In this document: positions 896 through 1,855 of the stretch, one piece after another
How positions within the stretch are numbered: the stretch's first letter is position 1
How the letters are laid out: each line of letters opens with the position of its first letter
Sequence record: PV691511.1
Length of the DNA: 64,000 bases
Source: Escherichia phage WPEC2
Direction: 5' to 3' (one strand)
Notes under the pieces: generated by a model
What the model was told of the DNA's origin: nothing
Database searches by the model: none
Seen by the model: only the letters and a program-made list of their open reading frames with translations
Translations under genes and position numbers: made by a program

Positions 896-1192
896 ATGCC
901 TAAACTAAAACGTGGTCGTGGAAGACCAACAGCCGAAATGCAACAGATTTACGCAATGGATGCGGCGCAAGCAAGTGTAAAAGAATTATTTGCAGAGCAT
1001 TATTTAGAAGCTATGCGGTATATTGTTGAACTTGTTAATGATAAGGATGCAGCAAAACCTCTCCGCTTCCAAGCAGCTAAAGCTATTAAAGAGCAAGTAG
1101 AAGAATGGTTAGAAGAACATTATGAAGCTATGGAAGAAGAAACCCCTGCCGTGCAGAATACAGATGACGTTCCTAAAAAGATCGTAATCTAA
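896..1192 (+). CDS. small DNA-binding protein with N-terminal AT-hook-like KRGRGRP motif
   Basis: ORF with strong SD; RGRGRP core matches AT-hook consensus; remainder helical and acidic. Confidence 0.5.
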   Translation: MPKLKRGRGRPTAEMQQIYAMDAAQASVKELFAEHYLEAMRYIVELVNDKDAAKPLRFQAAKAIKEQVEEWLEEHYEAMEEETPAVQNTDDVPKKIVI

Positions 1193-1855
1193 TCCCTCTC
1201 CTCTCTTGGGGCTTTGCCCCTCCTCCTTGTTATTTTTAACACCCCTCTCCGAAAGGTTAGGGGCTTTTTTTTCATTCTCCTCTTCTGCATTTCTTATATA
1301 TGGTGAAACACCGTACTCTTTAGCTACTTTAACCCAATCGTCCCATTTATACAACCATAATTTTCCTTCGGTCCCTTCTTTATCTGATTTCAACCACATA
1401 TTAGGTTGCTTACCTGGGTACATGCGATTAGGTTTACGATTATAACCTCTAACACATCTTGTCGCAAACCTATCTACCAGAACAAGAACATATTTATATT
1501 CGTGGTTCAACGGCTCTTTGGAAGTGGCTTTAGGATTAGCTCCTAATTCTGCTGCCAGTTTTTGCCAATGAGCACCGTGTCTACTAAACTTACCCATACA
1601 ACCATCAATAGCATGAGCAATTTCGTGCTTCATTGTATCCACGATCATATCTCTTGTAGAGTTCTTATGCAAGTGCCAATTTACAACAACAATTTTATCT
1701 CGGTAGTTGCACCAACCGAAAGAGTTATTCACTTTGTTTCTAACACAAGCTTTATATCCTGCTTCACGTAACATGTTGTAGTAAACAGGAAAATCTTCTT
1801 TTATTTCCTGCATCACTTCCCACCACAAGAGTTGCAAGTCTCTCTCGGTATGCAT
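1109..1855 (-). CDS. SprT-like zinc metallopeptidase-domain protein
   Basis: HEIAH plus downstream HGxxW (HEIAHAIDGCMGKFSRHGAHW) matches SprT/DUF45-type signature; 3' end overlaps ORF 896-1192 and reads through a terminator, so C-terminus is uncertain. Confidence 0.5.
   Translation of the reverse strand: MHTERDLQLLWWEVMQEIKEDFPVYYNMLREAGYKACVRNKVNNSFGWCNYRDKIVVVNWHLHKNSTRDMIVDTMKHEIAHAIDGCMGKFSRHGAHWQKLAAELGANPKATSKEPLNHEYKYVLVLVDRFATRCVRGYNRKPNRMYPGKQPNMWLKSDKEGTEGKLWLYKWDDWVKVAKEYGVSPYIRNAEEENEKKAPNLSERGVKNNKEEGQSPKRGEGLDYDLFRNVICILHGRGFFFHSFIMFF
1242..1272 (+). terminator. rho-independent terminator (imperfect GC hairpin with GAAA loop plus T8)
   Basis: CCCCT...GAAA...AGGGG followed by 8 T; lies inside the 3' end of the convergent minus-strand ORF. 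Confidence 0.55.

Follow-up and report, generated by a model that had tools for sequence, protein, structure and literature searches.

A probable assembly joint lengthens the SprT-like protease gene in a phAPEC8-like phage sequence

The window, i.e. the whole 64 000-nt stretch of phage DNA analysed here, contains a SprT-like ORF of 248 aa (1109..1855, minus strand) that runs through a transcription terminator and overlaps a convergent gene. The run-through and the overlap are present in the sequence as given, but they are most likely not a real biological feature; their cause is a joint between positions 1270 and 1271. The C-terminal tail of the ORF is not a property of the SprT-like gene and is made by this joint of two non-adjacent genome blocks. 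We consider it very probable that the joint (J1) and a second one further right (J2) were introduced in assembly or scaffolding and that the extended ORF does not correspond to a real product.

Three blocks and two joints

By sequence comparison the window is phAPEC8-like (Phapecoctavirus) DNA made of three blocks. Homology to every related phage stops exactly at 1270|1271 (BLAST and direct comparison), a break that the first-pass annotation of this DNA had missed. Local BLAST against the full phAPEC8 genome placed window 1-1270 at 60373-61730, window 1268-17945 at 118704-134878 and window 17937-64000 at 61731-110012. The same three blocks occur, in a different order, in the WPEC6 record (26940-28209, 117005-133682 and 62264-108320, respectively). 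With junction bases excluded, each block is 100% identical to WPEC6; zero mismatches were found over window 1271-17945.

The left block (A-left, 1-1270) carries tRNAs, a 98-aa gene and a terminator. Block B (1271..17943, minus strand; 16.7 kb) corresponds to WPEC6 117008-133682 and to phAPEC8 118707-134878 and has ∼30 leftward genes, among them genes of SprT-like and TerC-like proteins, anaerobic RNR and a helicase. The right block (A-right, 17944..64000, plus strand; 100% identical to WPEC6 62264-108320) carries the spanin, the large terminase and structural and replication genes, and is the natural continuation of window 1-1270. Block B therefore separates two sequences that adjoin in all normal relatives (in phAPEC8 coordinates, the insertion falls between 61730 and 61735-39), and the end of A-left and the start of block B, here in direct contact, are ∼57 kb apart in normal genomes.

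The native adjacencies are well preserved elsewhere. The terminator|spanin contact of A-left and A-right is whole in 61 of 66 records, and the native contact at the right end of block B is whole in 64 of 67, as well as in the sister records WPEC1, WPEC4 and WPEC6. The native telA|SprT boundary, searched with a 311-nt probe, is whole in 68 of 70 phage records; the other two, according to their sequences, are WPEC1 and WPEC4. A conserved genome structure has been described for this phage group (PMC6563267).

J1 (1270..1271) is a blunt joint without microhomology that leads from A-left (...GGGGCTTTTTT) to block B (TTCATTCTCC...); in a three-way sequence comparison it reads ...GGTTAGGGGCTTTTTT|TTCATTCTCC.... 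Its left side is formed by the six Ts of the native terminator, whose native continuation is ATTTTTAATGC; its right side begins inside native GTCATTC|TTCATTCTCC. J2 (17941..17945), from block B to A-right, lies inside the sequence TTAAT common to both parents. It deprives the first gene of block B (native start codon at 17936-17938, minus strand) of its GAGGAG ribosome-binding site, and the ORF of this gene stays open for 36 codons further upstream past J2.

None of 50 697 phage records spans J1 or J2, and a pattern scan for J1 with 6-12 Ts allowed found no match in IMG/VR, metagenome contigs or GTDB genomes. The break points (the A site and the two ends of block B) have neither a recombination motif nor an inverted repeat in common; the sole repeat at the block B ends is an SD-like direct repeat, TCTCCTCTTC, near both of them. 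Transposition was rejected, as block B has neither a target-site duplication nor a transposase at its ends. Site-specific recombination of the shufflon type was rejected as well, since apart from the SD-like sequence the A site and the two block B ends have no motif in common. The idea that the A site is a physical genome end is unsupported: the site lies ∼58.6 kb from the start of the record of phage Schickermooser, for which a 328-bp terminal repeat was reported.

Native end of the SprT-like gene and the elements that its tail crosses

The native SprT-like zinc metallopeptidase part of the ORF (1271..1855, minus strand) comprises codons 1-195 of 196, as delimited by PF10263, phrog_6445 and orthologues; the native protein matches phrog_6445 end to end (E = 1.5e-63). 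Its Phapecoctavirus orthologues include phAPEC8_00210 (AFU62781.1), EF1-1 gp207 (XPO96365.1, annotated ‘SprT-like family protein’) and WPEC6_CDS0232. In closely related records residues 1-195 are 99-100% identical, the upstream neighbour is the same (phrog_27550) and a TerC-like gene lies further upstream. The difference is at the 3′ end. In WPEC6 (591 nt, 196 aa), phAPEC8 and EF1-1 the gene terminates as ...NAEEENEE-TGA, and the stop codon overlaps the ATG of a TelA-like gene as ATGA, whereas the window copy is without the last codon GAA, the stop TGA and the TelA-like gene, and adds 53 unrelated codons (1112..1270, minus strand) that run through the terminator and the 3′ end of gene 896-1192 in antisense orientation. 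Since J1 removed the last codon and the stop, the ORF runs on through these non-native codons to a stop codon at 1109-1111.

The first-pass annotation had assigned about 80 codons to the part translated across the terminator. The ORF does cross the hairpin and the U-tract, but only 53 of its codons are non-native. Its overlap of 84 nt with the convergent ORF 896..1192 is indeed there (ORF list).

No orthologue was found to have this tail, whether by tblastn, among database homologues or in the alignment, and an exact look-up showed that the 248-aa product is not on record. Homologues in a large protein database fall into four clusters of 192-196 aa, one of which stands for 110 sequences. In the alignment all homologues stop at the native position. 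The three lengthened ORFs part from them after ...EEENE, and their tails, of 53 aa in the window, 11 aa in WPEC4 and 69 aa in WPEC1, are mutually unrelated.

Three readings that had been proposed for the C terminus (a frameshift, a true overlap of two genes and a low-complexity extension) have to be weighed against these data. A frameshift would be placed in the T-run at 1265-1272, and a homopolymer of eight Ts is located exactly where the native sequence ends; the tail is also rich in Lys, Glu and Gly at its start, as a natural extension might be. Past the T-run, however, native downstream sequence is found in no frame; what follows is the terminator of the tRNA module, natively ∼57 kb off. 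Neither the last codon nor the TGA nor any of the TelA-like gene is present there, so no indel of 1-2 nt restores a frame. A genuine overlap is contradicted by the same native distance between the two genes and by the lack of a conserved tail among orthologues, and an extension by the orthologues themselves, which end at ...EEENEE after 192-196 aa. The third-position GC content (GC3) of the tail is 0.585 versus 0.349 in the native part. An open run of 53 codons in this antisense frame, against ∼19 expected, is no more than mildly unusual; the two remaining frames are closed after 3 and 26 codons. The block mapping refutes all three readings, and we give almost no credence to any of them.

The sequence on the other side of J1 is ordinary for the group. 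Five tRNA genes (Gly, Gln, Pro, Ile and Met-CAT; 122..688, plus strand) were identified in A-left by ARAGORN and Rfam, and besides them the Rfam scan of window 1-2000 gave nothing above threshold. The tRNA cluster region is identical to WPEC6 26940-28209 and collinear with phAPEC8 60373-61730. The ORF at 896..1192 (plus strand) encodes a conserved 98-aa phage protein of unknown function, which matches phrog_3330 end to end (E = 1e-34) and is annotated as a CDS in ESCO37, phAPEC8 and WPEC6. Judged by this conservation it is a real gene, and the spurious SprT tail overlaps its 3′ end.

Downstream of the 98-aa gene lies an intrinsic-terminator-like element (1208..1272, plus strand). It has two GC hairpins (1208-1220 and 1242-1263) and then a U-run (1265-1272); six of the Ts in this run are native and block B supplies two. 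A simple terminator scan missed this site because the stem has internal mismatches; folding was used instead and gave dG = -23.7 kcal/mol, with z = -3.45 relative to shuffled sequences. The element is present in one copy in phAPEC8 and in one copy in the window, and is kept in at least 60 records.

Sister records and the origin of the joints

Among closely matching records, the terminator|spanin site is broken only in WPEC1 (PV659873.1), WPEC4 (PV682947.1) and WPEC6 (PV763039.1), which have a common host and source. A literature search for WPEC1, WPEC4, WPEC6 and EC3.18 found no relevant paper. WPEC1 and WPEC4 were compared with the window around the relevant joints. All three records resemble the window in having identical sequence blocks and common block ends (the SprT 3′ end, the terminator end and the start of the terminase module); in WPEC1 and WPEC4, as in the window, the SprT ORF is artificially lengthened (to 264 and 206 aa, respectively). 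Unlike the window, they have another partner at each end, and the combinations seen at J1 and J2 occur in none of them. In the window the SprT end TTCATTCTCC abuts the terminator; in WPEC4 it abuts the end of a rhamnose block, and in WPEC1 an inverted terminator element. After the terminator end ...CTTTTTT the window continues with SprT, WPEC4 with a TelA gene that is inverted and has no ATG, and WPEC1 with a series of short stubs; in WPEC6 the terminator module extends 5 nt more (ATTTT) and then meets an inverted rhamnose block.

The sister records carry, in addition, many short fragments. Partial copies of the 311-nt probe for the terminator|spanin site number 10 each in WPEC1, WPEC4 and WPEC6, versus one copy in the other records listed. 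The region 143.1-152.1 kb of WPEC6 consists of 57 consecutive pieces, mostly of 72-87 nt, each identical to sequence at the ends of the record's own blocks (at 5045, 28210, 60885/6 and 62263/4). The pieces occur in both orientations and sometimes in tandem, including head-to-tail repeats of one 77-nt stub. WPEC1 has two imperfect copies (164-178 nt) of the native telA|SprT junction. Because phAPEC8 and the window each have just one copy of the terminator element, the WPEC6 pieces are not natural repeats; in WPEC6 and WPEC1 the piece lengths are as expected if edges and bubble branches from a k = 77 de Bruijn graph had been strung together into the record. The window differs from WPEC6 in this respect, having no k-mer-sized stubs within its 64 kb.

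Contigs of a de Bruijn-graph assembly were most likely concatenated in the wrong order, giving J1 and J2. In the window the 16.7-kb block, starting at the penultimate SprT codon, stands between the terminator module and the spanin/terminase module. With the SprT stop lost, the frame stays open for 53 codons across the terminator and antisense into the 98-aa gene. Five lines of evidence lead us to this explanation: the junction is unique in public data (phage records, IMG/VR, metagenome contigs and GTDB genomes); almost all records keep the canonical adjacencies (68/70, 64/67 and 61/66); in assemblies that are otherwise identical, one and the same end meets different partners; debris of an assembly graph is present in the sister records; and the joints damage genes, as the SprT stop, the ribosome-binding site of block B and the ATG of TelA in WPEC4 are lost. 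Two features looked for in a chimera, flanks that are non-adjacent in all independent relatives and a junction that is unique, were both observed in the window. Two more, varied partners and k-mer-sized fragments, were observed in WPEC1, WPEC4 and WPEC6; the window has no stubs.

The absence of stubs from the window's 64 kb counts against an assembly origin, and so do several details of the joints. The block B end used at J2 does not recur in WPEC1, WPEC4 or WPEC6, and the A-left end in WPEC6 is 5 nt away from that in the window. J1 is blunt and J2 has only 5 nt in common between the parents, whereas contigs from one graph normally overlap by k. The recurrent break points could also reflect recombination hot spots or a mixed phage population.

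If the window were faithful to a phage genome, illegitimate recombination would have moved or duplicated the 16.7-kb block to a position after the terminator of the tRNA module, and a real SprT-like protein with a 53-aa neo-C-terminus would be encoded convergently with the 98-aa gene. Such an event would be compatible with the location of J2 in the 5-nt microhomology TTAAT, with the direct repeat TCTCCTCTTC adjoining both block B ends, with the AT-rich, intergenic nature of the target site, where only 4-9 bp were lost, and with the clean and collinear remainder of the 64 kb. It is difficult to reconcile with zero point differences from WPEC6 over 64 kb in spite of a different large-scale order, with three or four different partners at the same ends in the sister records, with the k-mer-sized stubs there and with joints that remove a stop codon and a ribosome-binding site and separate block B from the promoter region upstream of it. 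In every other member the order is the canonical one, in line with the conserved structure stated in PMC6563267, and the junction occurs in no other public sequence. We regard this rearrangement as unlikely. A broader version, in which large block rearrangements recur in WPEC-lineage Phapecoctavirus at the terminator and the telA|SprT boundary and the window is a natural isomer encoding a protease with a new hydrophobic C terminus, seems to us very unlikely. A rearrangement, if real, would make this lytic myovirus an unusual example of genome isomerisation on a large scale.

One can also suppose that the break points themselves are real, being programmed or hot-spot recombination sites or fixed DNA ends, either in the WPEC lineage or in a mixture of two phages, so that the records are isomers. 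This would explain why the breaks at the terminator end and at the telA|SprT boundary fall on the same nucleotide in each of four assemblies, and a putative site-specific recombinase is annotated in phAPEC8. Still, the break points have no common recombination motif or inverted repeat; the joints are blunt and show every orientation, and one 77-nt stub is repeated head to tail; the lengths of the stubs centre on an assembler k-mer size, a value without biological meaning; and the joints truncate genes. This makes real break points highly improbable.

Under the assembly explanation, which we prefer, the strange SprT tail matters little as biology and its use is in quality control. At least three public ‘complete genome’ records (WPEC1, WPEC4 and WPEC6) and the source of the window appear to be block-shuffled assemblies. 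These records contain spurious fusion ORFs (a truncated TelA and SprT-like proteins of 206, 248 and 264 aa). WPEC6 also contains, as does WPEC1 locally, kilobases of k-mer stubs, which appear in the annotation as dozens of very small hypothetical proteins. From such records false protein families can arise, and so can mistaken claims of rearrangement.

The SprT-like protein and its relatives

The assignment to the SprT-like family, made at first from the motifs HEIAH (aa 77-81 of the 248-aa ORF) and HGAHW (aa 93-97), was borne out by profile search. Pfam SprT-like PF10263 matched aa 31-107 with 36 bits (gathering cut-off 25.6, E = 6.5e-9) and was also found in all four database homologues. Homologues with identities as low as 45% all have H77, E78, H81 and H93, and from this invariance H93 is probably the third zinc ligand. 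The PF10263 match, the HExxH motif with a downstream His and a structure match to SPRTN mark the native 196-aa protein as a true SprT-like zincin.

The same annotation had called such a protein unusual for a phage, which is not the case. Homologues were detected by tblastn in 229 phage records, including phages of Klebsiella, Escherichia, Vibrio, Citrobacter and Enterobacter; seven PHROG families match the SprT-like protein, and several Phapecoctavirus records already have the SprT-like label. SprT-like genes are common in large phages, and published work mentions SprT-like peptidases of jumbo phages and others. The present gene is already known and conserved in phAPEC8-like phages. We infer that it is a normal conserved early or middle gene, expressed as part of the leftward gene block and with translational coupling to the TelA-like gene. 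The protein is presumably a zinc protease that acts on DNA-bound or host proteins during infection; this working model of cleavage agrees with the role suggested for the SprT-like peptidases of jumbo phages (PMC7824862).

The AF2 model of the native protein (pLDDT 85.8), built from a shallow alignment of five sequences, has an alpha/beta catalytic subdomain (∼1-105) and a beta-rich subdomain (∼120-185). A sequence-profile search of the PDB gave only a chance match (E = 0.48). The top matches in a Foldseek search of the PDB were the SPRTN structures 6MDX (E = 1.7e-4) and 6MDW (E = 3.3e-4), with 178-180 aligned columns and moderate similarity (TM 0.44-0.48). They were followed by minigluzincins, which matched the N-terminal half; Wss1 (5LN5) was at rank 23.

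Like the SprT domain of human SPRTN (6MDX, 6MDW), the phage protein has HExxH with a downstream His and a protease subdomain followed by a beta-rich one, and 178 of 183 columns are aligned with 6MDX. At 17% identity and an rmsd of about 12 A, however, the arrangement of the subdomains differs. The second subdomain of the phage protein (aa ∼120-185) is conserved but, unlike that of SPRTN and Wss1, is without a Cys/His zinc cluster, so that in the predicted model the likeness to SPRTN would be one of layout; DNA-dependent proteolysis and a part in DNA-protein crosslink repair, as in proteases of the SPRTN/Wss1 type, would be hypothetical for it. The minigluzincins selecase, abylysin and jannalysin (4QHI, 4JIU and 4JIX) superpose more closely on the ∼105-aa N-terminal catalytic subdomain (rmsd 2.8-3.8 A; TM 0.59-0.63, normalised by target length). 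They are single-domain proteins of about 110 aa, to which layout the phage protein adds its conserved C-terminal subdomain of ∼85 aa.

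Second block joint and the first gene of block B

The second joint of block B (the leftward gene block at window 1271-17943), designated J2, is located at 17941-17945 inside the sequence TTAAT common to both sides, and within this pentamer the terminase module picks up again where block B stops. The first gene of block B, ORF 17621..18046 (minus strand), has its native start at 17936-17938 (protein MANKEPHV...); the GAGGAG ribosome-binding site of this gene is gone at J2. The reading frame remains open for 36 codons upstream of the native start, and this upstream extension is antisense to a small gene at 17999-18169.

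Block order and stubs in sister records

In the sister record WPEC6 (PV763039.1), an inverted block of ∼34 kb (28210-62264) comes after the terminator site that also adjoins the joint in the window; its phAPEC8 equivalent runs from 38542 down to 7351, with 431-1812 in addition. Megablast gave no WPEC6 counterpart for the rmlA/rmlB region of phAPEC8 (38542-40640).

The ‘complete genome’ records of WPEC6 and another sister, WPEC1, contain kilobases of strung-together stubs of ∼72-87 nt, copies of each record's own block ends; many of these carry annotations as very small hypothetical proteins. Concatenated stubs occupy 143132-152073 in WPEC6 (stretches L009-L012), while WPEC1 has stub or duplicate stretches at 821-1360 of L014 and 198-815 of L016. 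Imperfect duplicates of the telA-SprT junction are also present within these public records. Both records look mis-scaffolded.

The tRNA module

Between tRNA-Ile and tRNA-Met, the stretch at 536-606 holds the T-arm-like motif GGTTCGAATCCAGC. Neither ARAGORN nor Rfam called a tRNA at this position; possibly, a tRNA gene has decayed here. A terminator (hairpin and T-run) is located at 804-822, downstream of the cluster. It is overlaid by a weak Rfam match to RyhB (775-829), with a score of 29 bits, below the gathering score of 55; the match is almost certainly a chance resemblance of the terminator.

Comparison with phAPEC8

Four stretches of the window (10321-11308, 14601-16174, 42069-46049 and 53334-54278) had no phAPEC8 match in megablast searches. 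They include a tail-fibre region, which replaces phAPEC8 85863-88803 (an endo-N-acetylneuraminidase tail fibre), and are also found in WPEC6. Such differences are ordinary mosaic variation.

The family-A DNA polymerase ORF (56877..60209, minus strand) encodes 1110 aa versus 865 aa in phAPEC8, with an in-frame insertion of ∼730 nt at ∼57730-58461. Pfam identified DNA_pol_A at aa 845-1009 only; neither an intein nor an endonuclease domain matched at E ≤ 0.001. The extra segment may represent either an intein or a domain insertion.

The SprT-like gene is preceded, ∼1.6 kb upstream, by a TerC-family membrane protein gene (3481..4455, minus strand), and in canonical genomes it is followed by a TelA-like gene; together these place the peptidase of this lytic phage within a neighbourhood of tellurite-resistance-like genes. 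This TerC/SprT-like/TelA-like neighbourhood is already known from annotations of phAPEC8 and its relatives.
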